From Pedosphaera sp. (GTDB taxonomy: Bacteria; Verrucomicrobiota; Verrucomicrobiia; Limisphaerales; SIBH01): a DNA stretch of 64,000 bases. The notes beneath the pieces were generated by a model. That model did not search any database. It had not been told where the DNA came from and was given only the letters and a program-made list of their open reading frames with translations. The stretch is taken from NCBI GenBank assembly GCA_031414955.1, contig JANOQV010000012.1, positions 31,100 to 95,099 of the forward strand. The letters run 5' to 3'. Made by a program: the position numbers and the translations under genes. This document shows, one piece after another, positions 22,225-63,838 of the stretch (its first letter is position 1; every line of letters begins with the position of its first letter).

Positions 22225-22235
22225 GGGAATTATTT

Positions 22236-28317: not shown

Positions 28318-28326
28318 CTCGCCAGG

Positions 28327-28354
28327 GATACGTATGGGACCCGTCGAGTTTTAA
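28327..28354 (-). promoter_or_regulatory. Weaker copy of the same bipartite motif facing the FecR-barrel/kinase/sigma operon: TTAAAA-N16-CGTATC
   Basis: The minus strand reads GAAAGATTAAAAC-TCGACGGGTCCCATA-CGTATCCC. It has one mismatch in the -35-like hexamer and the same 16-nt spacing. It lies only ~10 nt from the first ATG of the ORF, so it would imply a downstream start. Confidence 0.25.
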
Positions 28355-28372
28355 TCTTTCTGCAACTTTGTG

Positions 28373-28408
28373 AAGATTTTTTCAAAAAGGCCCGGCCGGT
28401 TGCGTGTT
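28373..28408 (+). promoter_or_regulatory. Candidate ECF-type promoter, distal copy upstream of RCC1 paralogue 1: AAGATTTTTTCAAA-N16-CGTGTT
   Basis: TTCAAA at 28381-28386, an exactly 16-nt spacer, CGTGTT at 28403-28408. One of five co-oriented copies of the same bipartite motif. Confidence 0.4.
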
Positions 28409-28440
28409 CATGCCAGTGCAGGCAGCCGCGCAAATTGTTT

Positions 28441-28700
28441 TCAGCCGCTCTGGTCCACCGCCGAGACGGGAAGAGCGCAGAGGTTTTCCGGCCGGGATCT
28501 CTGTACTGCAATCCATCCGAATCCTCGTGCGCCGCGAGGATTTCTGCCCGCCTGATCCACCGCCGAGGCGGGAAGGGCGCAGAGACAGCGCGTTCGGAAA
28601 GCTCTGCCCCCTTCCCGCCTCTGCGGTGGATCAGCCCGTTCCCTTTGGTTGCGGCTCCGCCGCGCTGTGTCCTTCCCGTCTCTGTGGTGCCACCGGGTGG
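28441..28700. repeat. Cluster of four ~35-nt GC-rich repeats (family 'CTCTGCGCCCTTCCCGCCTCGGCGGTGGATCAG'), two forming a long hairpin
   Basis: GATCCACCGCCGAGGCGGGAAGGGCGCAGAG (about 28552-28582) and CTCTGCCCCCTTCCCGCCTCTGCGGTGGATC (about 28600-28630) are inverted. Further copies lie near 28450 and 28665, and at 34845-34935 upstream of paralogue 2. Confidence 0.75.
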
Positions 28701-28745
28701 ATCGTTTGGTTGCGGCTTGGCCGCTCCGTGTCCAGCCGTGGTTAA

Positions 28746-28781
28746 AAGATATTTTCAAAAAGGCCCGGCCCGTTGCGTATT
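28746..28781 (+). promoter_or_regulatory. Candidate ECF-type promoter, proximal copy upstream of RCC1 paralogue 1: AAGATATTTTCAAA-N16-CGTATT
   Basis: TTCAAA at 28754-28759, 16-nt spacer, CGTATT at 28776-28781. About 110 nt upstream of the ATG at 28892. Confidence 0.45.
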
Positions 28782-28891
28782 GCTCTGTAGAGATGGACAG
28801 GATGTGTTATGACAGGACCCGAATTGCCCAGGTCATCCGGCGACGAGGCGCAGCTTTGTCCGCGAATGACACCCCGGCGGCTACTTGACGA

Positions 28892-34772: not shown

Positions 34773-34808
34773 AAGATTTTTTCAAAAAGGCCCGGCCCGT
34801 TGCGTGTT
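34773..34808 (+). promoter_or_regulatory. Candidate ECF-type promoter, distal copy upstream of RCC1 paralogue 2
   Basis: TTCAAA at 34781-34786, 16-nt spacer, CGTGTT at 34803-34808. The surrounding ~125 nt are almost identical to 28372-28495. Confidence 0.4.
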
Positions 34809-34943
34809 CATGCCAGTGCAGGCAGCCGCGCAAATTGTTTTCAGCCGCTCTGGTCCACCGCAGAGACGGGAAGAGCGCAGAGGTTTTCCGGCCGGCGATC
34901 TCGGTGTCCTTCTCGTCTCTGCGGTGCCAGAACGCGCCCGGCG

Positions 34944-34979
34944 AAGATTTTTTCAAAAAGGCCCGGCCCGTTGCGTATT
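34944..34979 (+). promoter_or_regulatory. Candidate ECF-type promoter, proximal copy upstream of RCC1 paralogue 2
   Basis: TTCAAA at 34952-34957, 16-nt spacer, CGTATT at 34974-34979. About 105 nt upstream of the ATG at 35084. Confidence 0.45.
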
Positions 34980-35083
34980 GCTCTGTAGAGATGGACAGGA
35001 TGTGCTATGACAGAACCCGAATTGCCCAGGTCATCCGGCGGCGTGGCGCGGCTGCGGATGACACCACGGCGGCTCCTTGGCGA

Positions 35084-38000
35084 ATGATTTTTTATATCAC
35101 AGTTTGTGGTGATCCGAGGCGGCGGTGGCTGTTAACCCTGCTGCTTTTGTGCGCTGCGCTCCCTGGCCCGGCGACGCACGGCGCGGGTTCCTTGCTGTCG
35201 TGGGGTTTGAACAACGCCGGCCAGACCAATGTGCCGGCGGGCCTGACCAATGTTGTGGCCGTGGCGGCGGGCCAGAACCACAGCCTGGCCTTGAGGGACG
35301 ACGGCACCGTGGTGGCGTGGGGCAGCAATGCCACCGGCCAGACCAACCTTCCTCCGGGGCTGGATGGAGTGAGCGCCATGGCCTCCGGACTCTTCCACAA
35401 CCTCGCCGTGCGCGCCGATGGCACTGTCGTGGCGTGGGGCCAGAACATCTATGGCCAGACCAATGTCCCGGCCGGGCTGCAAAATGTCGTCGCGGTGGCG
35501 GCTGGCACCCGACATAGCCTGGCCTTGCGGGCGGATGGCACCGTCGCCGGCTGGGGCACGAATGAGGACGGCCAGATCACCATCCCGCCCAACCTCACCA
35601 ACGCCCTGGCCATCGCCGCCGGGGCTTATCACAGCCTGGCGCTCCGCCGCGACGGCACCGTCGTGGCCTGGGGCCGGACGAACTACTTGCAGACGGCGGT
35701 CCCGGCCTCGGCCACGAACATCCTCGCCCTCGCCGCCGGCGGAGATCACTCCCTCGCCCTGCGCGCGGACGGCCAGGTGATCGCCTGGGGTTACAGCGTC
35801 TCCGGCCTGACCAACGTGCCGGTCGATCTCACCAATGCCGTGGGCGTTGCGGCGGGATACTATTTCAACAGCGCCCTGCGCGCGGATGGCCGAGTGGTGG
35901 CCTGGGGTGCCAACAACTCCGGCCAGACCAACGTGCCGCCGGGCATGACGAACGTGGTAGCGCTGGCCGCGGGTTACGGTCACGCCTTGGCTCTGCGCGA
36001 TTCAGATTTTGTCGTGTCCTCTGCGCCAAGGATTCTAACCCAGCCGCACGCACGGACCATCTACAGCGGCACTACCGTCACGCTGGACGTGCTCGCCATC
36101 GCTCCCGATCCAATCGCCTATCAGTGGCAATTCGGGGAGACGAATCTGGCCGGGGCGACGAATGCGTCGCTCGTTTTGGAGAACGTGCAGTTCGCGCAGG
36201 CGGGACTGTATCGTGTGGTGGTCAGCAGCAGCGGTGGAGTTGCTGTGAGCATCGACTCCTTGCTTTCGGTGGTTGGCGCCGGCCCGATCATCGTCAGCGG
36301 ACCATCGAATGTGGTGACGCTTGCTGGTTCGACTGCGGAGTTCCACGTCACTGCGGACGGATCAGAACCCTTCAGCTACCAATGGCAGTTCAATGGTGCG
36401 GACATCAGTGGGGCCACCAGCAGCAGTTTGTTTCTCTCGAATATCCAACTGGCTGACCAGGGCGGGTACCGCTGCGTCGTCAGCAACGCCTTCGGCGTCA
36501 TCACCAGTTCGGCGGCGATCTTGATCGCACCGGCGCTCGTCATCGCGTCGCAGCCTCAAAGCCAGACTGTCTTGGCGCTGGCCAGCGTCACCTTCAGCAT
36601 CGTCGCCGTTGGCTCTGGCCCCTTCACCTACCAGTGGCGGAGATCCGGCATCAGCCTGACGGAGGGCGGCTGGATTCTGGGGGCGCAGACGGCCACGCTG
36701 ACCTTGTCCAATGTTCTGCCCGCCGACGCGGGCAGTTACTCGGTGACGGTGCATAATGCCTTTGGCACCGCGTCCAGTTCCAACGCTTGGTTGGCGGTGG
36801 TGCCACTGGTGGCTTGGGGCACCAATTCATTCGGGCAAACCAGCATTCCACTGAGTCTCACCAACGTGACGGCGGTGGCTGCGGGCGCCTATCATAATCT
36901 GGGGCTGAAGGCAGACGGGACAGTAGTCGCTTGGGGGCAGAACTCTTCCGGTCAGATCAATGTTCCACCGAGCTTATCCAATGTGGAGGCCGTCGCGGCA
37001 GGAGTCGCTTGGAGCCTGGCTCTGCGCGGCAATGGAACGGTGATGGCGTGGGGATCTGGTATTCAGACCAATGCTCCGTCCGCGCTGTCGAACGTGATCG
37101 CGATCGCGGCTGGCGGCTTTCATGGTCTGGCCTTGAAACAGAACGGCACCGTGGTGGCCTGGGGCCAGAACACCGAGGGCCAGACCAATGTGCCTCCCGG
37201 CCTGTCGAACGTGATTGCGATTGCGGCCGGACAATCCCATAGCCTGGCCTTGAAGGCGGACGGTCGGGTCGTCGCCTGGGGCTGGAACACCTGGGGCCAG
37301 ACGAACGTGCCGCCGGGGCTTTCAAACGTGGTCGCGATTGCAGCGGGCATGTTCTACAGCCTGGCCTTGAAAGACAACGGGACCGTGGCGGCCTGGGGTT
37401 CCAACTCCCTTCCCAGCGGATTAAGCAACGTCGTGGCCATCGCGGCAGGTGCGGCAGGTGCGCCCGATCACGGTCTCGCACTCACGGACGACGACACGTT
37501 GCTACGGTGGGGAAACACTTGCTGTGGCCTGACGAACATTCCGTCTGGCCTGACCGGCATCGCCGCTGTCGCGGCGGGTGCCAACCATGACCTGGCTCTC
37601 GTGTTTGGCTCATTGGCCGTGAACCCGATAACTCCTGGTGCCGTGGTGGCCTGGGGAAACAACAACTACGGCCAAACGACGGTGCCCGTGGCAGCGCAGA
37701 GCGGAGTGGTGGCCATTGCGGCGGGAGGTTCTGAATACGGTGGTCACACCGTGGCCTTGAAGACCGACGGCAGCGTGGTGGCGTGGGGAGAAAACGACTA
37801 CGGCCAGACGACGGTGCCCGTGGCGGCGCAGAGCGGAGTGACGGCCATTGCGGCGGGAGCTGGTCACACTGTGGCCTTGAAGAACGACGGGAGCGTGCTG
37901 GCGTGGGGACGCAACTTCGAAGGCCAAACGAACGTGCCCGTGGCGGCACAGAGCGGAGTGACGGCCATTGCGGCGGGACGTGTTTATACCGTGGCCCTAA

Positions 38001-44337: not shown

Positions 44338-44411
44338 GGAGCGGGCGAAGGGAATCGAACCCTCGTGGCCAGTTTGGAAGACTGGAGCTCTACCATTGAG
44401 CTACGCCCGCC
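44338..44411 (-). tRNA. tRNA-Gly (anticodon UCC)
   Basis: Minus-strand read GCGGGCG-TA-GCTC-AATGGTA-GAGC-T-CCAGT-CTTCCAA-ACTGG-CCAC-GAGGG-TTCGATT-CCCTT-CGCCCGC-T-CCA. It folds as a full cloverleaf with a 7-bp acceptor stem, a TTCGATT T-loop, anticodon TCC and an encoded CCA. Confidence 0.92.
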
Positions 44412-51794: not shown

Positions 51795-54700
51795 CTAGGG
51801 CACCATCAATTCGTAGAAGACGGTATTGGTGCCAGCGAGCGAGTTCGTCACGGTGACCGATCCGAAGAAGTTGGTGTAAACATTCGTCCAGAGCGTGCTC
51901 GCGGCCGGGCTTCTCAGGCCGATGCTGCGCCGAAGGATGACGGTGGCATTGCTGCCACAAGTATTTATGACTGGATTGCTCCAGTTCAGCACACCTCGGG
52001 TGGTGCCATTGCTGTAGGTGATGCTAGTCCGCAGACCGTTGGTACCGAGCTTGAAGCCAGTCTGCCAGGCGATGTTCGTGCATATCACTCCTCCATTCGT
52101 CACGGTCAACACCGCCACGCTGCTGGTGGCGCTGCTGAAGGAGTTGTTGGCCCGCATCACATAGTTGGAAATGTTCGCGGTCGTGAGGTTCGGGATGACC
52201 AGCAGGCTGTTGGTCTCGCCGGAAAGAATAGCACCATTCTTGTACCACTGAAGGGTGATAGGCAGCGTGCCGGTGGCAGTAGAGCGGAAGAACGCGGTCG
52301 AAGCCACGCCATTCGTGCGACTGCGCGGATGCTCCACGATCCGCACCGGAATCGGCGTGGGCAACGGCCCGGAAGCAACGGTGGCAGTCATCTCCAGACC
52401 AAAAACCACATCGGAACTGGCGGCACCACTCTGGTGGACTTCCGCAGCAAAGACGTTGGTGCCGGGCAGCAAGGTGACGATCAAATCGACTGGTCCCACA
52501 ATGACGGCATCACCAACGGCTGCAATGCCCTGACTGGCGGCGGTCATCTGGCCGGCCGGCATGTTGAAGCGGTAGATTTCAGCCCCGTTCAGGTAGAGAA
52601 CCAGACCGTCGTCAACGATATGGCGGAGACGCAGCACGGTGTTCGCACCGCCGATCACGGCCGTGTATTTTTGGCGGAAATAGAATGTGTTGTAGCGGTT
52701 GCCAACTCCATCAGCCAAGGCCAGCGGGGTATTCTTGGCCGCTGGCAAAGGCGCGCCTTCCACGTAAAACAAGGCGTTGCTCGGCCCCGACCAGGTCGAG
52801 TCATCGAAAGAAGGAGTGAAGTAGGAGGCGTGGATTTCCTCGTTGGTGTTCACGAGCAGGTACTTCCAAGCGTTGGTGAAGGAGGCCACCTGCAAGACCG
52901 CGCCGACAGTGACTGAACTGTTGGGCGCGATGGGGTTGGCCCGGCTGGAGGCATCGGTCAGGTTGTTCACCACCACCATGTAGGCACCAACCGGGAGCGG
53001 GCTGGCAAAGTTCAGGACGACGTTGGAGCCATTCAGGACGGCGCTGGAGACGGGGAAGGTTCCGCCTACAATGTTGGTGACAAGATAGTTCACAACGAGT
53101 TGCGCCGGGGTCGCGGCCATTCGCTTACTGAAACCAAGCTGAATGGAAGTGCTGGAGACCAGAGAGCCGGACAGAAGAACGGGCGCGTTGGAATCAGTGA
53201 TGACATACAATCGAGCCACGATACTGGTGGCGCTGCCAGAGGCTGGGTTGCTCACGATGGCGCGGAATTGCCAGCCTGCCATGTTGGTCGAGACGTTCGC
53301 GATGGTGTAGTTGGCCGCAGCGGCCCCGGCCACATTCACGTTATTGGTCTGCCATTGATAGGACACTCCCGCGACAGAGAAGACCTGGAAGGTGGCGGAC
53401 TGGCCTTCGACCACGGTTTGATCAAACGGGCCATTCAAGACCTGCACCGGGCCGTTGGTGAAGGACTCCACGAAAGCATCCAGTTGCAGGCCAAATTCCT
53501 TGTCGATGTCGTTGATTTGTGGCTGATGCACCTCAACGGCGATCACGTTGCTGCCAACCTGATAGGAGGGAAGGGCGATGGAAATTGGTCCAATGCGGCT
53601 CGAATCACCCACCACTGCAGACGGCAGAGTCAAATAGTTGATCGCACCCGTGGGCATATTAAAGCGAAGAAATTCGCTCCCGTTCATCCAGAAAACGGCA
53701 CCATCGTCCAAAATGTGAGTGACGGCGAAATTCAGGTTGCCGGGGCTGGCCTGTAGGTTGAATCCACCCCGGAAGTAGGAGGTAATGCTCGGCGCTTCCG
53801 ACAAGGGCGTGCCGCCAGGGCCAGGAAGGTTATCTGCCGGTGAAACGTAAAACACACCGAAGCCAGGACTCATATATTGCTCATCCGGGTAACTGAAATC
53901 CTTCCAAGCGGTCCCCAAATCGGGCCCAATGACATCGAAAGGGGGGAATGGATCCAGGACGTTCCAAGCCGCAAGCGGATTGTTCAAACCACCCAAAGCC
54001 TTGGTCAGCACCTTCATGGTGATGGGCATCATGCTGTTCGGGGCGATGAGATTGGTGGCCGGGGAAGTATCGCGGACGTTGTTCACGATCAGAACGTAGT
54101 TGTTATTGACGAGGCGCGGGGCGGTCGTGGTGAGCAGGACGTTGCTACCATTAACCCGAACCGCACTGGAGACGGTGAGCATTCCGCCGAGAGTGTTGGT
54201 GATTTTGTAATAGGCAGCATTGGTGGCGGTGGAGGCCAGCACTAGTTCAGAGTAACCAACCAGCACCTGGGAGTTGGTGGCGGTACCGTCCGCCATGACC
54301 AGCAGGGGCCGGTTGGTGTCAACGATGACTCCCAAAGTGACCACGCTGCTGGTGACGCTGTTCACGGTATTGCTGGCCACGACGAAGTAACTTCCCACGT
54401 CGTTGGTGGTCGCCGACGCGATGATCAACGGATTTTGGGTGGCGTTGGAGACAGCCACGCCATCCTTGTACCACTGGTAGTAGGCGGGTTGGCCCTGGAG
54501 CCCAAGAGTGAAGTCGGCGATCTTGGTTTCCTCGACCACCAAATTTTGCGGCTGGCTGGTGATGGCGAGGAGACTGGGATTGTAAAAGTTGACGTTCACC
54601 TGCATACCGAAGTCAACGTCACTGCTGGTGTTGTTCACCTGGTGGACTTCCACCGCCAAGGTGTTGGTGCCCTGAATCAGGAGAGATGAAGGGATGTTGG

Positions 54701-56303
54701 ATACGACAAAAACAGCTTCAGTCAAAGTGCCCGGGGCTGTGACAGTGCAAGCCGGATCCCCAGCGGCCATGTTAATGCGAATCGCCTCGACCCCGTTAAC
54801 ATAAAAGATGGCTCCGTCGTCCACGTAGTTGCTGGCCACCAACTGAACTTCGCTGGGATTATTGGTCAGAACAAACTGCGTGCGAAAATAGTAGGTGATG
54901 ACGCGATTACCGCCGCCATCGGTCAGGGACAAAACGGTGTTGGTCAATGGGGTTAGGGCGGCATTGTCTTCGACAGCAAACAGTCCCCGTCCCTGCGGCC
55001 AAGCAGCATCATTAGTGTAATTAGCAGTTCTCCAACTCGCATCAAGACAGACACCCGCCTGGTTGTATTTCCAGAAATGATTGGTCAGTCCGACGATGAC
55101 ATACGGATTGTCCGCAACAGAGACCACGGCGCTGGCGCTGTTCGGCAACACGGCACAGTTGTCCACCGCTAGGGTGTAAAGCCCGGAATCGGAGGACACG
55201 GCGTTCAGTTTGGTGTAAGTGGCGTTGGTTGCGCCGAGGAGGATGGCTCCATTCCGATACCATTGATAGGAGATGGGCGAGGTGCCAGCCACTAGGGCGT
55301 TCACGGTGATGGTCGCTCCCGGAGCGACGGACTGGTCAGCGGGCGGAACAGTGAATGTGGTCGGGGTGGAGCAATTCACCACCACCAAGGCGTTGCTGCT
55401 GGTGACGGAGCCAAAGACATTCGCAACGACCACCGAATACAGACCGCCATCAATCGGCTGCGCATTGACAATGGTGAACGAACTGTTGGTTGCATTGACA
55501 ATCAGGTTGCTCTCCTTGCGCCACTGATAGGAGAGCGGTTGAGCACCGGTGGCGACCACGGTCAGGGTCACGTTTTGTCCGGGGGAGACAGAAGAATCCT
55601 GCGGCTGAGTGGTGATGCCGGGGAAAGGAATCGTGACGGCAAAATTATCGATCTGGTAGGCACCATCGGTATTCGTCACAGAGTTGTCATCCGCGAAAAG
55701 AATATACATCTTGCTGCCACCAACCCAGGGGCTGGCGAGGCTGATGTTGATGTTGGTGTTGCCCGCCGCGTAGAAGTTGCCGAGCGCCACCCAACTGCTG
55801 GCCAGACCGCTCAGGCTGTAATAGACGCGATGCCCGGGGCTTTCCTCCGCCGTCGCCGCCACGGCCACGGCCAGGCTGTAGCTCAGACCGATGTTAGTGA
55901 GACTGCTGCCAGAAGTGTTGGTGAGCGAGGCCATGAGCAAGGTCGCCGCGTTGCCCGTGGGCCGGGTTTGGAGATAAAAGCCCAAACTGCTCCATTGAGC
56001 AGTAGCGGCGGTACCAGGCGGATTAGCAGCATTGTTTCCCACGGCCGCGTTAATCAGAGCGGCGGTGTTGGTCTGCACGGCGGCATCCAGAGTTGCCAGC
56101 GTGGTGGCTGTTTGGAAATCGTTTGCGGTGCCTGGGATGGAACGTGTGGACCAACTAGTGGCCGGCGGAAGCGTGCCAAAAATATTCACCGCGCTGCCGG
56201 CCGGCCCGACGGAGATTTGGGCCGCAGCTTTGGATGGTCCGCTGAACAGAGCCAGAGCGATAGAGCCGGCCGTCAATAGGGTTCTCAGAGTTTGGGTTCG
56301 CAT
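51795..56303 (-). CDS. Giant secreted Ig-like-repeat protein with three 'FDDSxW' jelly-roll modules
   Basis: Signal peptide from the Met at 56303 (MRTQTLRTLLTAGSIALALFSGPSKAAAQ). At least five I-set-like modules ('YQW..NG..I.GATN..Y.I.N......G.Y..V..N..GS.TS'). Two SbsA-type Ig-like linkers. Three modules of the form 'W.Y......W....F.DS.W...........YFR......DDG...Y.NG.E..R.NMP...AVE.HQ'. A short C-terminal tail. Confidence 0.8.
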   Translation of the reverse strand: MRTQTLRTLLTAGSIALALFSGPSKAAAQISVGPAGSAVNIFGTLPPATSWSTRSIPGTANDFQTATTLATLDAAVQTNTAALINAAVGNNAANPPGTAATAQWSSLGFYLQTRPTGNAATLLMASLTNTSGSSLTNIGLSYSLAVAVAATAEESPGHRVYYSLSGLASSWVALGNFYAAGNTNINISLASPWVGGSKMYILFADDNSVTNTDGAYQIDNFAVTIPFPGITTQPQDSSVSPGQNVTLTVVATGAQPLSYQWRKESNLIVNATNSSFTIVNAQPIDGGLYSVVVANVFGSVTSSNALVVVNCSTPTTFTVPPADQSVAPGATITVNALVAGTSPISYQWYRNGAILLGATNATYTKLNAVSSDSGLYTLAVDNCAVLPNSASAVVSVADNPYVIVGLTNHFWKYNQAGVCLDASWRTANYTNDAAWPQGRGLFAVEDNAALTPLTNTVLSLTDGGGNRVITYYFRTQFVLTNNPSEVQLVASNYVDDGAIFYVNGVEAIRINMAAGDPACTVTAPGTLTEAVFVVSNIPSSLLIQGTNTLAVEVHQVNNTSSDVDFGMQVNVNFYNPSLLAITSQPQNLVVEETKIADFTLGLQGQPAYYQWYKDGVAVSNATQNPLIIASATTNDVGSYFVVASNTVNSVTSSVVTLGVIVDTNRPLLVMADGTATNSQVLVGYSELVLASTATNAAYYKITNTLGGMLTVSSAVRVNGSNVLLTTTAPRLVNNNYVLIVNNVRDTSPATNLIAPNSMMPITMKVLTKALGGLNNPLAAWNVLDPFPPFDVIGPDLGTAWKDFSYPDEQYMSPGFGVFYVSPADNLPGPGGTPLSEAPSITSYFRGGFNLQASPGNLNFAVTHILDDGAVFWMNGSEFLRFNMPTGAINYLTLPSAVVGDSSRIGPISIALPSYQVGSNVIAVEVHQPQINDIDKEFGLQLDAFVESFTNGPVQVLNGPFDQTVVEGQSATFQVFSVAGVSYQWQTNNVNVAGAAAANYTIANVSTNMAGWQFRAIVSNPASGSATSIVARLYVITDSNAPVLLSGSLVSSTSIQLGFSKRMAATPAQLVVNYLVTNIVGGTFPVSSAVLNGSNVVLNFASPLPVGAYMVVVNNLTDASSRANPIAPNSSVTVGAVLQVASFTNAWKYLLVNTNEEIHASYFTPSFDDSTWSGPSNALFYVEGAPLPAAKNTPLALADGVGNRYNTFYFRQKYTAVIGGANTVLRLRHIVDDGLVLYLNGAEIYRFNMPAGQMTAASQGIAAVGDAVIVGPVDLIVTLLPGTNVFAAEVHQSGAASSDVVFGLEMTATVASGPLPTPIPVRIVEHPRSRTNGVASTAFFRSTATGTLPITLQWYKNGAILSGETNSLLVIPNLTTANISNYVMRANNSFSSATSSVAVLTVTNGGVICTNIAWQTGFKLGTNGLRTSITYSNGTTRGVLNWSNPVINTCGSNATVILRRSIGLRSPAASTLWTNVYTNFFGSVTVTNSLAGTNTVFYELMVP

Positions 56304-56554
56304 AAAGGTGTAGGGTTTTTGATTCACGAGACACGCCGTTGTCGCATCGAAATTGAGTTTGCACTTCATGGGTTGTTTCAGAAGTGCAACAAGGAATCAC
56401 GGTTGGCCCTCTTTGGCAACAGTGAAAACAGGCGGCGCGATTATTTTTTGAGGTATTTTTCCTGCCTCGCCTTGGGAGGCGGCCTCGCGCCAGTTGCGGC
56501 CCGGCGGCTGGTTCCGCCGGTAATAATTTGTCGCCGGTATCAGGGACATAAAAA

Positions 56555-56582
56555 TTGACAATGATGGCTCGATTTGTAGAGT
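56555..56582 (+). promoter_or_regulatory. Putative sigma-70-type promoter of the FecR / CHASE2-cyclase operon
   Basis: TTGACA (56555-56560), 16-nt spacer, TAGAGT (56577-56582). About 40 nt upstream of the ATG at 56624. Confidence 0.35.
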
Positions 56583-56623
56583 GCCCTCCGAACAACTTGA
56601 AACTGGCCAAGCCAGAAAATGAT

Positions 56624-57370
56624 ATGAATTCAAACCCGCTGTTCTCTTGGAAGGCCGCTGTCGCCGTGGCAGCCGCCTTGTTACTGATCCCAGTTGCCCA
56701 GGCCCAAAATGCCGCGCAGCGCAAAGTGCTGGTCAAGGCCATCGCCGGCGAAGCTCGTTATTCAAGCGGTGGAGGCGAGTTTAAGATCTTGTCCCCCCAG
56801 ACTCAGGTGGGCAAAGGCGACGTCATCAAGACCTCCGTCAATTCCCACGTCGATCTCGACATGGGCAGCAATGTTGGCGTGCTCCAGATTCCAGAGAGCA
56901 CCACCCTGACCATAGACGAGGCCACCATCACTCAAACGCAGGTGGAAGAGCTGACTGACACTCAGATTTCGATCAGCGAAGGCGGAGTCTATGCCAAAGT
57001 CAATAAGCTGGCCAAAGGCTCGCGCTACGAAATTGCCACTCCCAAGGGCATTGCCGGCATTCGTGGCACTTCGATCTACTTGACCGCAGCGGGACAATTG
57101 ACGGTGGAAAAAGGCTTGGCGGGCATCGCCTACGGTCCCGGCGATGTGGTTTTGTGTCGCGAAGGTGAAACCGTCGGTCCCAGCGATCGTCCGCCGCACG
57201 AGGCTTCTTTGCTCGTCCTCCGCGAGATTGTCGAAGCCCTTCGCGATTGCTCCTTCCACGGAGTCTGGTACGGGCATCTGCCGTTTTTCCCGGGGTTCGA
57301 GCCATTTTGCTCTCCGGCCCTTCCGAATGGTAAGCCTTTCCCCGGTCGCGGTCGTCCGTTCGGCGGCTAG
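56624..57370 (+). CDS. Periplasmic FecR-domain protein
   Basis: Signal peptide 'AAVAVAAALLLIPVAQAQ'. 'AIAGEARYSSGGGEFKILSPQTQVGKGDVIKTSVNSHVDLDMGSNVGVLQIPESTTLTIDE' and 'YEIATPKGIAGIRGTS' fit the FecR sensor-domain pattern. Confidence 0.65.
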   Translation: MNSNPLFSWKAAVAVAAALLLIPVAQAQNAAQRKVLVKAIAGEARYSSGGGEFKILSPQTQVGKGDVIKTSVNSHVDLDMGSNVGVLQIPESTTLTIDEATITQTQVEELTDTQISISEGGVYAKVNKLAKGSRYEIATPKGIAGIRGTSIYLTAAGQLTVEKGLAGIAYGPGDVVLCREGETVGPSDRPPHEASLLVLREIVEALRDCSFHGVWYGHLPFFPGFEPFCSPALPNGKPFPGRGRPFGG

Positions 57371-57416
57371 AAATTTTGGCCAGACGTAGTCTTTTCAATC
57401 CCAGAGCGACCTTGAG

Positions 57417-59792
57417 TTGCTCTGGGGTTTTTGTTTCTGTCCTGCTGTGAAGTGGAAGGCGTCGCCACTTGTTCTCATCCTGATATGCGCTGGCGTGATC
57501 GCCGGTTTGAGTTTGCTTGAATGGTTAGGTGAGACTCAGCAGCGCCTCACTTTTTTCAAGCGGCTTGAATGGATCACCTATGATTGGCGGGTCCGTGAAG
57601 CGGCCCGGCACGCCTCGCCCGTCGCCACCAATCTTGGTTTTGTAACTTTGGATGAGGGCAGCATTGACGCTGTCTTGAACGGCTCGTTGCCTTATCGATT
57701 TGGGTTGCTCTGGCCCCGGCAGGTTTACGGTCGGCTTGTGAGTGAACTTTCCGCCCAAGGCGCGAATGTCGTGGGCCTGGATGCGTTGTTTTCCGAATTG
57801 CGACCGGATCACCAGGCGGTGTCCACCGATGGCGGCTCGATTTCTTCCGACGCCTTCTTCGCCCATGCCATGCGCCGCAGTGGACGGGTGTTACTTGCGA
57901 CGGAGGATGGTCTTTTCCCACCGGAATTGTTTGCGACCAATGCGCTGGGCGTGACGCATCTCGCCGCGCAACCGGAATCGGATGGCATTCTCCGGCGTGC
58001 TCAGGCTTTCATCGAGGTGCGCGAATGGCACCCCGCCATCAAGCAGGCAGCGCGGGAATTCGGCTGGGACTTGAATCGGTTCACCTCGAATTCGCGCCAA
58101 CTTATTTTTCCCCGGCAGGATGGCGGGGGCACAAACATTCTGGCCCTCGACGCCGCAGGCCGGTTCAACGTCGGCCTGCTGGAGCGCGCGCTATCCAGCG
58201 ACAAGATGAGCCCGCTCGTCTGGCGTTTTGCCGTGCCGTTCAAGGATCACCGTTTGTGGCACCTCGGCCTCGAAATAGCGGCGCGGGAATTGAAATTCGA
58301 CCTGAAGAATGCACTCATCGATTTGGAGCGGGGGCAAATCATTCTCTCGAATACCCAAGGTGTGCGGCGTGTGCTGCCCGTGGATCGCGCGGGCCGGTTT
58401 TACATCCACTGGAGCGTCGGGATGGCGGACCCACGGTTGACGACCAGGCCCATCGAGCACCTGCTTCACCAATACGAAGCTCGGCGGGCCGGGCGCATGG
58501 ACGAAGTGACCAACGAGTGGGCTGGTAAACTGGTGGTGGTTGGCTCCACGGCCTCCGGGAACAACCTGAGTGATCGGGGCGCGACGCCCTTGGAGCAGCA
58601 AACTTATCTCGTGAGCGGATATTGGAACGTCGCTAATTCGTTGCTCGTAAACCGGTTCGTGCATCCCCTGGGCCTGCCCGCCCGCCTGCTCATCATCGTA
58701 TTCTTCGCCGTGCTCTCCGCTTTCCTTACTTTGAATGCGCGCCTGCTGGTCGCGATCGCTTCCATTGTGGCGTTGGCCCTGGCTTACGCCGGCTTCGCCT
58801 ATGTTTTGTTTATCAAGACAGGCCACTGGCTTCCGATGGTGATGCCGGTGGCTGGTTCGTTGCTGGTGACCCATGTAAGCCTCATCACCTATCTGGTGCG
58901 CGTCGAACGGCGGCTGCGCAGGCACACCAAGGAGATCTTCAGCCGGGTGGTTTCCCCAGATATTGTGCATGAACTGCTGGATCGGGAAAAACTGCAACTG
59001 GGCGGCGCACGGCGGCGCATCACGATATTTTTCGCCGACATTCGAGGCTTCACCGCCGTGACCGAGCGCAGCCAGCAGCGAGCGGAAGAACTGGTGGCCC
59101 GGAGGTGCCTTTCAGGAGCCGAAGCGGAACGGCAATTCGATATCGAGGCCGAGACGGTGCTAAACACGGTCAACCCCTACTTGAGTGCCGTGGGTGATGT
59201 GATTTTGAAGCACGGCGGCTCGCTCGACAAATACATCGGCGATTGTGTGATGGCCTTTTGGGGCGCGCCGGCGGCAAATCCGCGCCATGCCGGTGCCTGC
59301 GTCCGCGCGGCGGTCGAGGTGCAGCGCGTCGTGCTGGAATTGAACGAGCAACGCCAGGCTGAGAATGTTCGCCGGACGGCGGAGCACCTCCATCGCGCGA
59401 CCCCCGGCCAGGATGCCTTGCCGATGCTCGAAATCCTGACGCTGGGCTCCGGCGTCAACACCGGCGTGGTGACCGTTGGCATGGTCGGTTCCGAGGCCCA
59501 TTTGATGAACTACACCGTGTTCGGCCGCGAGGTAAACCTGGCCAGCCGGCTCGAAGGTGCTTCGGGCCACGCCCGCATTTTGATCAGCGCAGAAACACAT
59601 GGTGATCTCCTGCGCGATGATCCGGAACTGGCCGCGCTTTGCCGGGAGCATCCGCCGCTCACGCTCAAAGGTTTCCGCGACCCGGTGAAAGCTTATGAGG
59701 TGATGTGGCGTCCGGCGGATGTCTCCGGGGACGAAGCCGGCCAAACCATGACCACCATCCGCTCCAAGACCCAGCGCGAGACCCCCAACTGA
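57417..59792 (+). CDS. CHASE2 sensor-domain adenylate/guanylate cyclase
   Basis: TTG start (a GTG at 57447 is an alternative). TM segment, then CHASE2 region ('GFVTLDE', 'VGLDALF', 'KLVVVGSTASG') and TM helices. The class III cyclase core has 'ITIFFADIRGFTAVTE', 'GGSLDKYIGDCVMAFWGAP' and 'YTVFGREVNLASRLE'. Confidence 0.85.
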   Translation: MLWGFCFCPAVKWKASPLVLILICAGVIAGLSLLEWLGETQQRLTFFKRLEWITYDWRVREAARHASPVATNLGFVTLDEGSIDAVLNGSLPYRFGLLWPRQVYGRLVSELSAQGANVVGLDALFSELRPDHQAVSTDGGSISSDAFFAHAMRRSGRVLLATEDGLFPPELFATNALGVTHLAAQPESDGILRRAQAFIEVREWHPAIKQAAREFGWDLNRFTSNSRQLIFPRQDGGGTNILALDAAGRFNVGLLERALSSDKMSPLVWRFAVPFKDHRLWHLGLEIAARELKFDLKNALIDLERGQIILSNTQGVRRVLPVDRAGRFYIHWSVGMADPRLTTRPIEHLLHQYEARRAGRMDEVTNEWAGKLVVVGSTASGNNLSDRGATPLEQQTYLVSGYWNVANSLLVNRFVHPLGLPARLLIIVFFAVLSAFLTLNARLLVAIASIVALALAYAGFAYVLFIKTGHWLPMVMPVAGSLLVTHVSLITYLVRVERRLRRHTKEIFSRVVSPDIVHELLDREKLQLGGARRRITIFFADIRGFTAVTERSQQRAEELVARRCLSGAEAERQFDIEAETVLNTVNPYLSAVGDVILKHGGSLDKYIGDCVMAFWGAPAANPRHAGACVRAAVEVQRVVLELNEQRQAENVRRTAEHLHRATPGQDALPMLEILTLGSGVNTGVVTVGMVGSEAHLMNYTVFGREVNLASRLEGASGHARILISAETHGDLLRDDPELAALCREHPPLTLKGFRDPVKAYEVMWRPADVSGDEAGQTMTTIRSKTQRETPN

Positions 59793-59843
59793 TCGAAGGG
59801 CGTGCGACTTGACCCTGTTCTTGGTACCGCCCAACCGGTGCAT

Positions 59844-59945
59844 GGTAGGGCGGCGCTGTCCCCAGCGCGCCGGGGTGAGGCGTGGAAAGTGCGGGAGTTC
59901 TCCTCCATTCGTGGCCCGGCGCGCTGGGGACAGGCGCGCCCTACC
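59844..59945. repeat. ~102-nt inverted-repeat element (family 'GGTAGGGCG.CGCTGTCCCCAGCGCGCC')
   Basis: GGTAGGGCGGCGCTGTCCCCAGCGCGCC (59844-59871) and GGCGCGCTGGGGACAGGCGCGCCCTACC (59918-59945) are inverted with 2 mismatches. It sits in the convergent intergenic region, ending 4 nt before the tail-collar-like gene stop. Confidence 0.85.
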
Positions 59946-59948
59946 CCC

Positions 59949-60410
59949 TCACTTCACCCGCAGCACCCACACCACTTCGTAATAAGTGGGCAGGCTCGAC
60001 GCGGGATCGCTGGTGTAATTGCCCGGCGGGAAGACGGTGACGTCCGCGCCCGCCACCACCGTGCCGCCGTTGATGTTCAAGGGCAGTCCATGCGAATGAA
60101 TCTCGTTGCCACCCGTGCCGCCGCTGGCATTCGCCCCGCGCAGGAAGACCGGCACCCCGCCTTGCGCTCCGTTCAGGTCCGGTGCGTTCAATCCGTTCAG
60201 CGGCGAGTCGGGATCACTGATGGCCTGCCCATTGCACTCGACCCAGGTGCCGGGCAGCGCGGGCACATTGGGCAGGCTTTTCAAATAACCGCTCACGCCC
60301 CCGACCGGATACACCGCGTCGATGAGCGCCTTGAGCGCGTTGAGTTGCGCGCGCATCTCGGCCGAGGCGAGCGGCGATTGGTTGGAAGGTTTGTTCGGAT
60401 CAAAGGGCAT
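59949..60410 (-). CDS. Phage tail-collar-like / tail-fibre-like small protein
   Basis: 153 aa. 'PGTWVECNGQAISDPDSPLNGLNAPDLNG......FLRG...SGGTGG...H.H' loosely resembles the tail-collar (MdpB-type) pattern W..CdGq....L.G...PDLrg. The N-terminal 'LASAEMRAQLNALKALIDAV' is like tail-fibre N-termini. Motif-level call only. Confidence 0.45.
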   Translation of the reverse strand: MPFDPNKPSNQSPLASAEMRAQLNALKALIDAVYPVGGVSGYLKSLPNVPALPGTWVECNGQAISDPDSPLNGLNAPDLNGAQGGVPVFLRGANASGGTGGNEIHSHGLPLNINGGTVVAGADVTVFPPGNYTSDPASSLPTYYEVVWVLRVK

Positions 60411-60418
60411 GGGCGAAG

Positions 60419-60449
<31 letters not shown>

Positions 60450-60616
60450 CGGGGAAAGCGGCGGTGAGGACCCTGTTCGTTGCCACGGCTCGGCGTTCCG
60501 TGGCGGGTGGCGGGAGCGGGCTTCTCACCCCGCTCTGAAACCAAGGAAACACCGGGCCAAAAACCCAAGTGAACCGGCTGGAAACCGCGCCGAAGTGCTC
60601 AAGAAGCCGACCTCGT

Positions 60617-60805
60617 TGCTCGGATATCCGACCTCCGGGCCTGGAATTCGAACCGGATCGGCCTCGGATTCCGACCTCAAAGCTCGGATTTCGGTGCTTC
60701 TGGGCGCGGTTTTCGACCGAAGAGGTCGGGTTTTTTACCTCGGAGTCCGGGTTTTTGACCGATTTGGCCGAGTTTTCAGGCACTGGGGCCGGGTTCTTTA
60801 CTGAT
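60617..60805. repeat. Degenerate ~21-bp periodic repeat array (about 9 units; core C(G/C)GG(A/G)TTTT(T)(C/G)(G)ACC)
   Basis: Cores start at about 60621, 60641, 60665, 60685, 60707, 60727, 60748, 60768 and 60790, spaced 20-24 nt with a mean near 21. Examples: GCGCGGTTTTCGACC, GTCGGGTTTTTTACC, TCCGGGTTTTTGACC. Confidence 0.75.
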
Positions 60806-60834
60806 AACGCCTTCATTGACAGCGATTAGCGTGT

Positions 60835-61422
60835 TTAAGGCGTCGGCGGCGTCGGCGTGGGGCCACCGCCGCCCCCGCGCGGGAAGAACCGCTTGAGATT
60901 GTCGAGGATGGTATTCGCGCCGGGCACGTTGCGCTTCGCGGCCTGCTTCACGTTGCTGTAGAAACTCAGGTAGGCCATGTAAGTGTCCACCCCCGCCGCC
61001 GTCTGCGTGTCATCCACGCCTTCGCAGAGCGGGCCGAGCTGCTGGAAGATCTCGCGCAAGGCCGAGCGCAGGGCGCGATCCTTGTTCACTTCGGCCAGGT
61101 CCACGAAGCCCGGCACCAGTTCGGGATGCGCGGCCATTTCCAGGGCGAAGGCCTCATCCATGCCGCTGCGGATGGTGCTCATCTTGGGCAGCGAACTTTT
61201 CTCCTCCGTGGTGAGGTTGAGCAGAAAGGGCAGTAGCGCGGTGATTTCATCCAGCTTGGTCAGGATGGTGTTTTTATTGGCCGAGGTCAGCTCGGCCGAG
61301 ATGCGATTATCCATGGTTTGTGTATGAGTTGAGGTTTGCGGTTGATGGCCATCCCAAGTGAGTTCGGGCGAATCCCACGACCAGGCGGGGTTCGGCGCGT
61401 CCCAAGTGAGCGGCGTTGACAT
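60835..61422 (-). CDS. Conserved-looking hypothetical protein (no assignable function)
   Basis: Coding-like composition. 'LTTEEKSSLPKMSTIRSGMDEAF..EMAAHPELVPGFVDLAEVNKD..L...L..I...L......VDDTQTAAGVDTYMAYLSFYSNVKQAAKRNVPGANTILDNLKRFF'. The start is ambiguous (ATG at 61422 or ATG at 61314). Confidence 0.5.
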   Translation of the reverse strand: MSTPLTWDAPNPAWSWDSPELTWDGHQPQTSTHTQTMDNRISAELTSANKNTILTKLDEITALLPFLLNLTTEEKSSLPKMSTIRSGMDEAFALEMAAHPELVPGFVDLAEVNKDRALRSALREIFQQLGPLCEGVDDTQTAAGVDTYMAYLSFYSNVKQAAKRNVPGANTILDNLKRFFPRGGGGGPTPTPPTP

Positions 61423-61639
61423 GCCCGTGGATATACGCCGGAGACGCGGCGGGCATAAGAGGAACAGTTGTTCCCCCCGGAGAACCGCCTCGCATTGCGA
61501 ATGTGGTGGAACCGGCCGCGCTGCGACCAGGAGCGCCGCGTAACAGCGGCGCAACAAACTCGCGAGAGTCTCGCCCGGTCGCACGCCCCACCCGGACCGC
61601 CCGCTGATGCGCGGGCGAGTTGTCGCAGCGCGACGACTG

Positions 61640-61954
61640 CTACCTCGCCACCCGCGCGCGGCGCTCGGCCTCGCGCACGAGCTGCCACGGAAATAATTCC
61701 AGCGCGTGCCCCAGTCGCGCCAGCGTGTCCAGCCCCGGCACGCGCTTGGCCCGCTCCACCAGCGACACGGCCTGATGCGACAAGCGCGAGCGCCGCGCCA
61801 GTTCCTTGAGCGACAGACCGAGCTTGACCCGCCGCTCGCGCAGCAACTCCGGCAGGGCCAGACAGACTGGTTCCAACAACGCGCGCGGCCCGGCCTGAGG
61901 TGCGCGCCGGGGGAGCGGTGGGGAGGAACTCTTTCGGGATGATTTCTTTTTCAT
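61640..61954 (-). CDS. XRE-family helix-turn-helix transcriptional regulator
   Basis: 'LRERRVKLGLSLKELARRSRLSHQAVSLVERAKRVPGLDTLARLGHALEL' is a classic Cro/C1 HTH. The start is chosen at MKKKSS (61954). Confidence 0.7.
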   Translation of the reverse strand: MKKKSSRKSSSPPLPRRAPQAGPRALLEPVCLALPELLRERRVKLGLSLKELARRSRLSHQAVSLVERAKRVPGLDTLARLGHALELFPWQLVREAERRARVAR

Positions 61955-62477
61955 GCCCGCGAGCCTCGCCCAAGGGATGGGACAAATACGGTCCCACCGG
62001 GGAAATAGTTTCGGAGCCAGCCAGGTGGGCGGCGACGAAATCCGGACCGGTTTCCAGGCAGGAGAAATCCATGCACCACAAACATATCCCGCCCGCCGAG
62101 GGTTCAATCTTCGGTGTAAAATTGGGAAACGAAGTCGGGTGCGGACCTGGCGGAGTGCCGCCATCGCCCCCGTTTGGGCGCTGGTTTGGGCTGGGAATGG
62201 CCGCAAGAATCGGGGCCTTCTGGCCAAGCCCGGTCAAGCGCGGGCCACCGGCTCAGGGCAATAATCGAGCATGAAGACCAGGGACCAAATGCACCCAAGC
62301 CCGCCGAGAAAGATGATCGGCCAGCACGAACCGGCGTGCCATAGCGAGTTGAAGAAACTAGGAACCGACCGCTCACGCTAATGGGTGCCCCCGTTATGAC
62401 CCCGTTACGACGACGCGGGCGACACCGACCTGCTGCGGGATGGACAAACCCAGGGACTTCAGGTAGGAAAATGAACG

Positions 62478-63296
62478 TTGAAAGCGCTGACCATACTCTT
62501 CGTTTCAATTGTTTCCATCCTGGCCCAAAGCCCGCCCCCGGCGCACCGTCTGCTTGGCACCAACATTGTAGATTTCACTTGGGTGTTGCGGGAACTGGCT
62601 AATCCCAATTCGGCGGTTGACTGGCACCGCAAATACATTGCGGCTGGTAAAGTGGAAAAAGTTTCCGCGGGCGGACTCATCGCGCTGGCCCAGACGCGAA
62701 AAGTTTACGAGTACAACACCGACTCTGTGAGCGGGCAACTGACGCGCCAGTACGGGGGCGGGTCCGATATGCTCGGCATGATGGCCGCGGCCAGGCTCGG
62801 GCAGAACGGTCCCATTAGCGCGGGCCATTACTTCTCGCTCAGCCCCAATCTGCGCCAGTATTTCAACGAAGTGAACCTGAAGACGGTGGTGACGGTGCGT
62901 GGCTATGAGCAGCCAACCTTCGTTGGTCAGAGTCTGGAGTTGGTCGCATGGCCGGTCGGCGTGAATACATTTGACTATGGCACGCCGGTGGCTGGCAACC
63001 TGGGTGACAAGGCCAGATTCGTCCTCAACGTGGGACCCAACGGAGTGACCACGTCACGCGCGGCGTCCACCGCAGATTTGAAACAGAGCGAGGCTGTGGC
63101 CTTCGAGCGCCAGCGTATCGCAGCCACCAACGGATCCGGCTCGGCGCAGTACGAGGTCGGCAAGCGATACCTGACCGCCGAGGAATTCGAACTGGCCCGC
63201 CACTGGCTGATGGCCGCGAAGACCAATGGATATGCGCAAGCCGCCGATAGGCTGCTCGAGAAGATCAAGCCTTCCAGTGCTCTCCCCGGCAAATGA
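62478..63296 (+). CDS. Secreted hypothetical protein with a C-terminal Sel1-like repeat
   Basis: TTG start about 9 nt after an AGGAAA. Signal peptide MKALTILFVSIVSILAQS. The C-terminal 'GSGSAQYEVGKRYLTAEEFELARHWLMAAKTNGYAQAADRL' is Sel1/TPR-like. Confidence 0.55.
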   Translation: MKALTILFVSIVSILAQSPPPAHRLLGTNIVDFTWVLRELANPNSAVDWHRKYIAAGKVEKVSAGGLIALAQTRKVYEYNTDSVSGQLTRQYGGGSDMLGMMAAARLGQNGPISAGHYFSLSPNLRQYFNEVNLKTVVTVRGYEQPTFVGQSLELVAWPVGVNTFDYGTPVAGNLGDKARFVLNVGPNGVTTSRAASTADLKQSEAVAFERQRIAATNGSGSAQYEVGKRYLTAEEFELARHWLMAAKTNGYAQAADRLLEKIKPSSALPGK

Positions 63297-63346
63297 CTGG
63301 CTGAATTTTCGGTGGGCAAACCCGGCTCTCTTGTTAAGCTCCTTCT

Positions 63347-63838
63347 GTGCGAACGGTCATTTATCCCGGCAGCTTCGATCCCCTCACGAACGGTCATCTC
63401 GACATCGTGCAGCGGGCCGCCAAGCTGTTTGACACGGTGATCGTGGCCGTGGCGGACAACGAAGGGAAGAAGCCGCTGTTTACGTTGCAGGAACGGATTG
63501 CGCTGGTGCAGGAATCCATCGGTTCCCTGCCCAATGTGAAAGTGGACTCGTTCAATGGGCTGCTGGTCGATTACGTGGAGAGCCGGGGCGGCCAGGCGGT
63601 CATTCGCGGATTGCGCGCCATCTCGGACTTCGAGTTTGAATTCCAACTGGCGCTGATGAACCGTAAGCTTAACGAGCGCGTCGAGACGATCTTCATGATG
63701 CCGAAGGAGACTTACACGTTTCTCAGCTCCCGCATCATCAAGGAAATCGCCCGGCTCCACGGCGATGTCCGGTCATTTGTCCCGGCGCATGTCGAAGCCG
63801 CCCTGAAAACGAAATTGGCGAAAGCGGTGAAGCATTGA
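63347..63838 (+). CDS. coaD: Phosphopantetheine adenylyltransferase
   Basis: GTG start. 'VIYPGSFDPLTNGHLDIVQRA', 'KKPLFTLQERI', 'IRGLRAISDFEFEFQLALMNR' and 'ETIFMMP...FLSSRIIKEIARLHGDV' are collinear with E. coli CoaD. Confidence 0.93.
   Translation: MRTVIYPGSFDPLTNGHLDIVQRAAKLFDTVIVAVADNEGKKPLFTLQERIALVQESIGSLPNVKVDSFNGLLVDYVESRGGQAVIRGLRAISDFEFEFQLALMNRKLNERVETIFMMPKETYTFLSSRIIKEIARLHGDVRSFVPAHVEAALKTKLAKAVKH

Follow-up and report, generated by a model that had tools for sequence, protein, structure and literature searches.

FecR-fold proteins as likely periplasmic partners of CHASE2 signal transducers in Verrucomicrobiota

The 64,000-nucleotide (nt) stretch of Pedosphaera sp. contig JANOQV010000012.1 analysed here (the window) contains two gene modules in which a protein with a FecR domain is encoded directly before a membrane transducer carrying the sensor domain CHASE2. 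In one of them a small secreted FecR protein precedes a CHASE2 adenylate cyclase, and in the other an outer-membrane protein resembling NsrA of Sinorhizobium meliloti precedes a CHASE2 Ser/Thr protein kinase and an extracytoplasmic function (ECF) sigma factor. A giant protein with immunoglobulin (Ig) domains is encoded divergently from each module. The best explanation as a whole, to which we assign a probability of about 0.6, is that FecR-fold proteins are periplasmic partners of CHASE2, the cyclase pair being one version of this arrangement and the NsrA-like kinase/ECF module a fuller one. The FecR-CHASE2 partnership is well supported by gene context and is already known from several papers. 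A link to the giant proteins is supported for the kinase-type module, and any role of the giant beside the cyclase pair has to be inferred.

To our knowledge, CHASE2 is a widespread sensor domain without a known ligand or mechanistic model. In the lineages sampled here, it is nearly always found together with a FecR-fold protein, irrespective of which of four output domains it carries, and the full-length partner is homologous to the sole outer-membrane protein experimentally tied to CHASE2 signalling. This near-constant partner and the homology to NsrA lead to the testable hypothesis that CHASE2 senses a partner protein. The kinase/ECF variant, with its embedded Ig gene and promoter motif, offers a tractable entry to the control of many giant surface proteins in Verrucomicrobia.

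FecR precedes CHASE2 across lineages

At the cyclase-type module, the gene of a secreted 248-amino-acid (aa) FecR-domain protein (56624-57370, plus strand; open reading frame (ORF) 56555/56624-57370; Pfam FecR E 6e-8) is followed on the same strand by that of a CHASE2 class III (IIIb-type) adenylate cyclase (57417/57447-59792; Pfam CHASE2 5e-28, Guanylate_cyc 3e-18). The initial annotation had described this pair and a divergent giant; all three ORFs were found at or near the positions it gave, and their domains were confirmed by Pfam. Its order of FecR gene, then cyclase gene held as well, whereas its intergenic gap of 46 nt did not: the cyclase probably starts at GTG 57447, because the N-termini of its orthologues point there, and the gap would therefore be 76 nt.

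We scanned for the cyclase family with the CHASE2 part of the window cyclase, taking one genome per species, and obtained 80 loci; these belong to Verrucomicrobiota without exception and have 41-60% identity. No stretch of a mixed kinase/cyclase CHASE2 alignment was conserved enough to seed such a scan, and the cyclase-type sequence was used instead, so that one orthologous family was sampled. A hidden Markov model (HMM) of the small FecR family was then applied to the 71 species-representative loci with at least 900 nt of upstream sequence. As a result, a FecR-family ORF was detected immediately upstream and on the same strand in 70 of them, the sole exception being L023, which has an assembly gap. 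For the other module type, a metagenome scan with the family of proteins that join FecR, TPR repeats and an outer-membrane barrel also gave 80 loci. Sixty of these had at least 1.5 kb of downstream sequence, and in 47 of the 60 a same-strand CHASE2 gene followed, directly adjacent in 22 and behind a short insert in the rest.

To look beyond the phylum, we compared the kinase-type CHASE2 with annotated plasmids by tblastn and found matches in rhizobial and Methylocystis replicons, while the cyclase-type CHASE2 domain found nothing in the plasmids. A FecR-domain gene lay upstream of the CHASE2 gene in all alphaproteobacterial plasmid loci sampled (6/6, counted by species). Four of these encode FecR+TPR proteins of ~1220 aa before CHASE2 cyclases; a Neorhizobium plasmid has a 365-aa FecR protein, then a 566-aa ORF, then a CHASE2 cyclase; and in Rhizobium sp. 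NZLR1 the gene of a 346-aa FecR protein precedes that of a CHASE2-GGDEF-EAL protein. Altogether, four output types follow the FecR-CHASE2 arrangement: adenylate cyclase, Ser/Thr kinase, GGDEF-EAL (L174) and histidine kinase, the last taken from the literature (PMC5192318). The enrichment of FecR genes before CHASE2 genes that had been anticipated was thus found in the sampled loci. The order FecR, then CHASE2 is far beyond chance, and FecR plus CHASE2-cyclase is the invariant core of the cyclase module. In one relative, L001, a second FecR+TPR gene (496 aa) lies ~3.5 kb 3' of the cyclase and is followed by hypothetical genes and CHASE2 fragments (L001:16761-20768); the two module types therefore stand near each other in that genome.

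The small FecR protein and the CHASE2 cyclase

The 248-aa FecR protein consists of a signal peptide (residues ~1-29), a beta-sandwich core (30-185), a helix (196-211) and a Pro-rich disordered tail. It scored 33.5 bits with the FecR model PF04773, for which the cut-off is 24, and its fold agrees with this assignment. An AlphaFold2 model built with 68 homologues (87 were found for this protein) reached a predicted local distance difference test score of 86 overall and >95 for residues 30-211. A PDB search with the sequence returned noise only, and a fold search was needed: the best Foldseek matches in the PDB were 4m0n/4m0h, a Bacteroidetes FecR-like anti-sigma factor, and 6ovk_R, the periplasmic cell-surface-signalling domain (CCSSD) of PupR, at probability 1.0 and with TM-scores of 0.39-0.46, that is, as partial matches. 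The fold match to FecR/PupR periplasmic signalling domains, together with the near-invariant gene order, is the reason why we read the small FecR protein as a likely partner of CHASE2.

Other classes were considered for this protein. It is not a FecR/PupR-type anti-sigma factor, as it has neither an anti-sigma domain nor a membrane anchor and shows only a cleavable-looking signal peptide. Nor is it an outer-membrane relay of the NsrA type, since it is soluble and has no TPR repeats or barrel. Pfam found no LysM domain in either FecR protein of the window, which separates both from the COG4254 LysM-FecR type.

The cyclase is predicted to consist of a first transmembrane helix, a periplasmic CHASE2 domain (~40-435), three further transmembrane helices and the cyclase domain. 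CHASE2 (PF05226) scored 98.7 bits in the cyclase and 99.9 bits in the kinase of the other module, against a cut-off of 26.3, and the hydrophobic segments read in the translations on either side of both domains indicate that they face the periplasm. Guanylate_cyc scored 66.5 bits. The best PDB match of the cyclase was P. aeruginosa CyaB (3r5g, E 2e-30), with FFADIRGFT, DKYIGDC and YTVFGREVNLASRLE aligned. We assigned the two metal-binding Asp, the substrate Lys, the Thr/Asp position and the transition-state Asn and Arg by reading the motifs; on this basis the protein is a class III adenylate cyclase and its catalytic motifs are intact. Between the two genes, a scan for terminator-like elements found a 14-bp stem-loop with a T-run (57397-57429, plus strand), which overlaps the possible TTG start of the cyclase and may be an attenuator that sets the ratio of FecR protein to cyclase.

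The kinase-type module

The first instance of the arrangement is a minus-strand operon. The gene at 24508-28317 encodes a protein of 1269 aa in which an N-terminal FecR domain is followed by TPR repeats and a TonB-type beta-barrel. Next come the genes of a CHASE2 Ser/Thr protein kinase (22236-24497; Pfam CHASE2 2e-28, Pkinase 1e-24) and, last in the operon, of an ECF sigma factor (21601-22227; Pfam Sigma70_r2; NCBIfam sigma70-ECF 1e-19). An RCC1/Ig giant (28892-33100, plus strand; Pfam) is divergent from this operon. The initial annotation saw the same logic here as at the cyclase pair, and as to a FecR domain, a CHASE2 kinase and a divergent RCC1/Ig giant at 21.6-33.1 kb this was right; the FecR-domain protein, however, is not a small periplasmic one but the 1269-aa protein, and the sigma factor gene 3' of the kinase gene was absent from it.

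The combination of FecR, TPR and a TonB_dep_Rec_b-barrel match (37 bits) marks the 1269-aa protein, for which 801 homologues were found, as an outer-membrane protein. Plug and STN domains were not detected in it by Pfam (E<=0.01). With only the barrel matched, the protein was rejected as a FecA-type TonB-dependent transducer, and it was likewise rejected as a FecR/PupR anti-sigma factor, because its FecR domain precedes TPR repeats and a barrel.

On pSymB of S. meliloti, a 1219-aa ORF whose stop codon overlaps the start of cyaK carries FecR and TPR (Pfam), and in a second S. meliloti strain the TonB-type barrel was found as well; from its size, its position and its architecture, we assume that this ORF is nsrA. 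The Verrucomicrobial barrel family aligned with it in hhalign at a probability of 99.3% (E 3.6e-20, 457 columns), colinearly over the FecR+TPR region, while the barrel regions aligned weakly. The same FecR+TPR-type architecture was present in L172, L173, L175 and L176. The window protein thus combines a size of ~1200 aa, the FecR/TPR/barrel architecture, a gene that directly precedes a CHASE2 gene, and homology to the S. meliloti protein. Because of the hhalign match to the ORF upstream of cyaK, we read the first instance as a putative NsrA-type relay with a kinase/ECF output.

NsrA itself is an outer-membrane protein of ~1200 aa, with a barrel described as residues 600-1200, on which signalling to CyaK and CyaD1/D2 depends; the signal relayed to these CHASE2 cyclases is an external protein (PMC7529298, PMC13001267, PMC10463352). 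The window shares with the NsrA-CyaK/CyaD1/CyaD2-Clr system the gene of a FecR/TPR/barrel protein of ~1200 aa that directly precedes a CHASE2 transducer gene. In contrast to that system, the NsrA-like protein of the window has a CHASE2 Ser/Thr kinase and an ECF sigma factor as partners in place of a cyclase. The cyclase of the window goes with a small soluble FecR protein that lacks TPR and barrel, and the rhizobial loci that we examined contain no Ig-domain partner genes.

The sigma factors of these modules carry the sigma-2.2 motif (E/A)xxDxxQE(T), which reads AAAQDIVQET in the window copy. In the known kinase-regulated systems EcfP/PknT and EcfK/PknS of ECF43 and in the planctomycetal ECF59-62, an ECF gene likewise adjoins that of a transmembrane Hanks-type kinase, with no anti-sigma factor (PMC13147305, PMC7826278). 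The hallmark of ECF43 is a sigma-2.2 region that has lost the acidic DxxD and conserves a phospho-acceptor Thr, with the consensus QTTA (PMC13147305). The sigma factors of the window type differ from these systems in that they keep the acidic motif and in that the sensor of the kinase is CHASE2. Because they keep the acidic motif and not the ECF43 signature, we infer kinase-to-sigma control from gene order only.

Ig proteins of the kinase-type module

In the barrel-family loci (1.05 Mb), an Ig_3-type HMM detected 47 ORFs, against 8 in 1.23 Mb of cyclase-family loci, which served as control Verrucomicrobial DNA and in which the hits were mostly the orthologous giants themselves. Since Ig_3 ORFs are this rare, two giants abutting FecR/CHASE2 modules within 64 kb are not a matter of chance, and the double occurrence that had been pointed out in the window is confirmed. 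Among the 47 ORFs of the barrel-family loci, 44 were inside the module or at most ~800 nt from its edge. They take two forms. The first (Pfam Ig_3) is a small secreted single-Ig protein of 235-335 aa with a conserved Cys-containing C-terminal domain; its gene lies between those of the barrel protein and the kinase, on the other strand (L104:14050-14763, L109:4028-4762, L128:12786-13541 and ~25 more barrel-family loci). The second is a multi-Ig protein of 640 to ~2600 aa, encoded directly upstream and divergently, between the barrel and kinase genes, or downstream. In orthologous kinase-module loci (76% and 68% identity) the divergent RCC1/Ig giant was kept while the outer flanks differed. A C-terminal domain common to the small and the large module-linked Ig proteins was considered and rejected, as there was one strong match, the others were weak, and none was in the window giants.

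Upstream of 19 of 28 small Ig genes, at a distance of 40-140 nt, we found the motif TTGAAAGATT-N13-CGTAT, which corresponds to TGAAA-N17-CGTA and has an ECF-type layout; weaker copies precede some sigma and barrel genes. This promoter-like motif would be consistent with the module and its Ig gene belonging to one regulon. In the window, a ~75-nt block upstream of the barrel gene (28317-28390, minus strand) holds GAAAGATT-N20-CGTAT and is ~93% identical to that of L170, a locus whose orthologous protein shares 76% identity; elsewhere the two intergenic regions could not be aligned. As the spacer is 7 nt longer, we do not claim GAAAGATT...CGTAT as the same ECF-type promoter. The suggestion that such modules monitor or regulate giant proteins is thus borne out by context for the kinase type, through the 44/47 Ig ORFs, their several arrangements and the promoter motif; for the cyclase pair, where the giant is found only in the closest clade, it may or may not hold. 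Our search of the literature found no description of a kinase/ECF-output NsrA-like module with an embedded Ig gene, and this is the most original element of the present analysis.

These observations also bear on a different role for the barrel protein. TonB-dependent-transporter-like proteins serve protein secretion in myxobacteria. By analogy, a plug-less TonB-type barrel with TPR and FecR might be a device for export or assembly of the Ig protein, with the CHASE2 kinase reporting occupancy of the channel. The missing Plug and STN and the tight embedding of Ig genes in the module are consistent with this, as are the below-cutoff NCBIfam matches of the TPR region of the barrel protein to pilus-assembly and PEP-CTERM TPR proteins. 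We nevertheless regard it as very unlikely, because the homologous S. meliloti protein works in the perception of an exogenous protein (PMC7529298) and no secretion-system components are conserved in the loci.

The window holds a third giant of 2323 aa (34745/35084-41716), a recent tandem paralogue of the first giant (28892-33100). The region 34773-35129, 5' of the 2323-aa giant, copies 28373-28937, 5' of the first giant, with 86-98% identity; owing to this copied upstream region, its real start should be at ~35084 and not at 34745. A 21-nt element, GGGCCTTTTTGAAAAAATCTT, occurs four times on the minus strand (28373-28393, 28746-28766, 34773-34793 and 34944-34964), where no occurrence is expected by chance.

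Proposed mechanism and known FecR-CHASE2 systems

We propose that the secreted FecR-fold protein and the inner-membrane CHASE2 adenylate cyclase form a two-gene envelope-signalling operon. The FecR protein would bind the CHASE2 domain or present a signal to it, and this contact would set the activity of the cyclase dimer and hence the synthesis of cyclic AMP (cAMP). At the kinase-type module, the NsrA-like outer-membrane protein, consisting of a barrel and periplasmic TPR and FecR parts, would relay a surface event to the CHASE2 Ser/Thr kinase, which may in turn control the adjacent ECF sigma factor. The cognate Ig_3 surface protein, small in many relatives and giant in the window, would be the likely target or cue of the kinase module. 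The FecR partners of CHASE2 would then come in several forms, some free, some tethered by lipid or LysM, and some joined in one chain with a TPR arm and an outer-membrane barrel.

Related arrangements have been described. The BiofilmReg operon of Burkholderia encodes a response regulator, a LysM-FecR protein (COG4254), a CHASE2 histidine kinase and a DUF4136 protein, and PA4035-36 of P. aeruginosa is similar (PMC5192318); this operon and the window have in common that the gene of a secreted FecR protein stands immediately before that of a CHASE2 transducer within the same operon. It differs in its output of histidine kinase and response regulator and in its LysM domain, which the window lacks. 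FecR adjoining CHASE2 was also reported, from comparative genomics only, for a Campylobacterota CHASE2 adenylate cyclase cluster (PMC9239204), which includes a cAMP phosphodiesterase, whereas we saw none in the window. The FecA-FecR-FecI and PupB-PupR systems share with the window the FecR-fold periplasmic domain (Foldseek 4m0n, 6ovk) and a common logic that runs from an outer-membrane barrel through a periplasmic FecR domain and an inner-membrane transducer to an ECF sigma factor. Unlike in those systems, FecR in the window is free or fused to the barrel instead of being part of a membrane anti-sigma factor, STN and Plug are missing, and the component at the inner membrane is a CHASE2 enzyme.

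The closest counterpart of the small FecR protein is SMc02177, a small FecR-domain extracytoplasmic protein encoded beside the CHASE2 adenylate cyclase in the cyaD1 region of S. meliloti (PMC5498481). It leads to an alternative in which the small FecR protein, though made from the same transcript as the cyclase, works downstream of it or independently, as a periplasmic or surface effector or an adhesin, and is not a co-sensor of CHASE2. SMc02177 is needed for the output phenotype (PMC5498481), and the nearest NCBIfam models of the window protein are the Leptospira surface adhesins Lsa33, LipL45 and Lsa19, all below cut-off. The stem-loop and T-run between the two genes speak for the same alternative, and so does the retention of the FecR gene beside the giant where the cyclase is absent. 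Against it speaks that, at 41-60% identity, 70 of 71 loci keep the FecR gene before the CHASE2 gene, and that this order recurs with four output domains in three phyla (PMC5192318, PMC9239204). Moreover, NsrA-type proteins contain the same FecR domain and are needed upstream of CHASE2 cyclases. We therefore consider the effector role unlikely and prefer a partnership of FecR-fold proteins with CHASE2.

Several points weigh against this preference or against parts of it. SMc02177, the one small FecR protein examined genetically, is dispensable for signal perception and acts as a downstream target of Clr (PMC5498481), which makes it a counter-example to the part that we assign to the small FecR protein. 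Two P0073 contigs (161 kb and 6.7 kb) keep the giant and the FecR gene without the cyclase, the FecR gene being directly followed by coaD; the small FecR protein is therefore not strictly tied to CHASE2. The sampling was non-random, covering one phylum and rhizobial plasmids. As regards the kinase module, the sigma factors cannot be placed in ECF43, as they keep the acidic ExxDxxQE (AxxD in the window) and lack the phospho-threonine hallmark, and a position weight matrix of the TGAAA-N17-CGTA motif gave no match of at least 16 bits in the window. The initial annotation regarded FecR-domain proteins as dedicated partners of CHASE2 sensors; the gene order in the three samples, the four outputs and the NsrA-CyaK precedent favour this idea, SMc02177 does not, and the idea is not new.

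A bolder proposal, which we consider rather unlikely as it stands, would have each NsrA-like barrel/CHASE2-kinase/ECF module of Verrucomicrobiota act as a dedicated trans-envelope circuit wired to one Ig surface protein, from a single-Ig form of 240 aa up to the giants, sensing its display or engagement at the outer membrane and driving its transcription from TGAAA-N17-CGTA. The 'ligand' of CHASE2 would then be a FecR-fold protein instead of a small molecule, and the cyclase pair would be the cAMP version of the same device.

The giant beside the cyclase pair

The gene divergent from the FecR-cyclase pair (51795-56369, minus strand) encodes a secreted Ig-repeat protein of 1524 aa (Pfam Ig_3/I-set, Ig_3 7e-32) with at least five Ig_3-type domains (five with a local Ig HMM). 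The initial annotation was correct in placing a divergent Ig giant here and gave it 1503 aa (51795-56303); its start and length need revision, since the true start is most likely ATG 56369. The reason is that orthologues share a 22-aa N-terminal extension (MTDKLYFGATT..NQQP.TFM), which is followed by a signal peptide ending in AAAQ, as well as the DNA sequence surrounding this ATG. Full-length orthologues with 45-47% identity were found in L003, L012 and L001.

The giant beside the cyclase pair may have a functional link to it or reflect plain inherited synteny. That it is an inherited neighbour only, with no functional tie to FecR/CHASE2, we consider nearly an even chance. The orthologous giant is kept in the nearest clade alone (the window, L001, L003, L010-L012 and the two P0073 contigs). 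Of 62 more distant loci, 40 have a same-strand gene for a Wzy_C (O-antigen-ligase-like)+TPR protein upstream of the FecR gene, and the remainder have variable, unrelated genes there. The order of coaD, YceD, L32 and plsX downstream is also kept, indicating high general synteny in the lineage, and the FecR operon has a conserved sigma-70-like promoter of its own. A mere neighbourhood is at odds with the persistence of the trio despite different far flanks (GT9 and GDP-mannose dehydratase in the window, N_methyl, Amidase_3 and Rex in relatives), with the similar divergence of giant, FecR protein and cyclase (45-60%), and with the kinase-type module, which is tied to Ig proteins in a rearrangement-tolerant manner.

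The Wzy_C+TPR protein has ~640 aa and lies directly upstream of the FecR-cyclase pair in L019:7090-9051, L035:7082-8983 and 38 other loci. Wzy_C/TPR, FecR and cyclase form a three-gene unit in most Verrucomicrobial species, and the window does not have it.

Around the start codon of the giant lies a leader/promoter block of ~80 nt (56350-56430, minus strand) with the pattern CATGGGTTGTTTCAGAAGTGCAACAAGGAATCACG-N10-TTTGGCAAC. It is nearly invariant in the window, L012, L010, L001 and L003 (copies at L001:9764-9796, L003:9747-9779, L010:1438-1470 and L012:2844-2876), while the flanking proteins are 45-60% identical. No Rfam family matches this block, and by eye it contains no convincing CRP/Clr-type palindrome (TGTGA-N6-TCACA or TGTT-N8-AACA). 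A consensus scan gave the FecR-cyclase operon a sigma-70-like promoter, TTGACA-N16-TAGAGT (56555-56582, plus strand; 10/12), which is conserved in L010, L001 and L003. The conserved leader block and promoter show that both transcription units are constrained in sequence, and no connection between the units is shown thereby.

Neighbouring features

The gene coaD (CTP_transf_like; 63347-63838, plus strand), recognised from its translation and from the neighbourhoods in relatives, served as a synteny anchor. In most relatives it lies directly 3' of the cyclase, whereas in the window an insert of ~3.5 kb (59.8-63.3 kb) separates the two. Within this insert (59800-63300) are ORFs for an XRE-like helix-turn-helix protein (61640-62227, minus strand), a protein of 153 aa (59949-60410, minus strand) and a secreted protein of 272 aa (62478-63296), none of which has a Pfam match. 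A further ORF 3' of the cyclase (59802-60434) looks spurious, because it is Arg-rich and has no family. The window also carries PSCyt/PSD1/DUF1501 genes, and its named homologues come from Verrucomicrobiota. A tRNA gene (44340-44410, minus strand) is the sole Rfam match at gathering score in the window.

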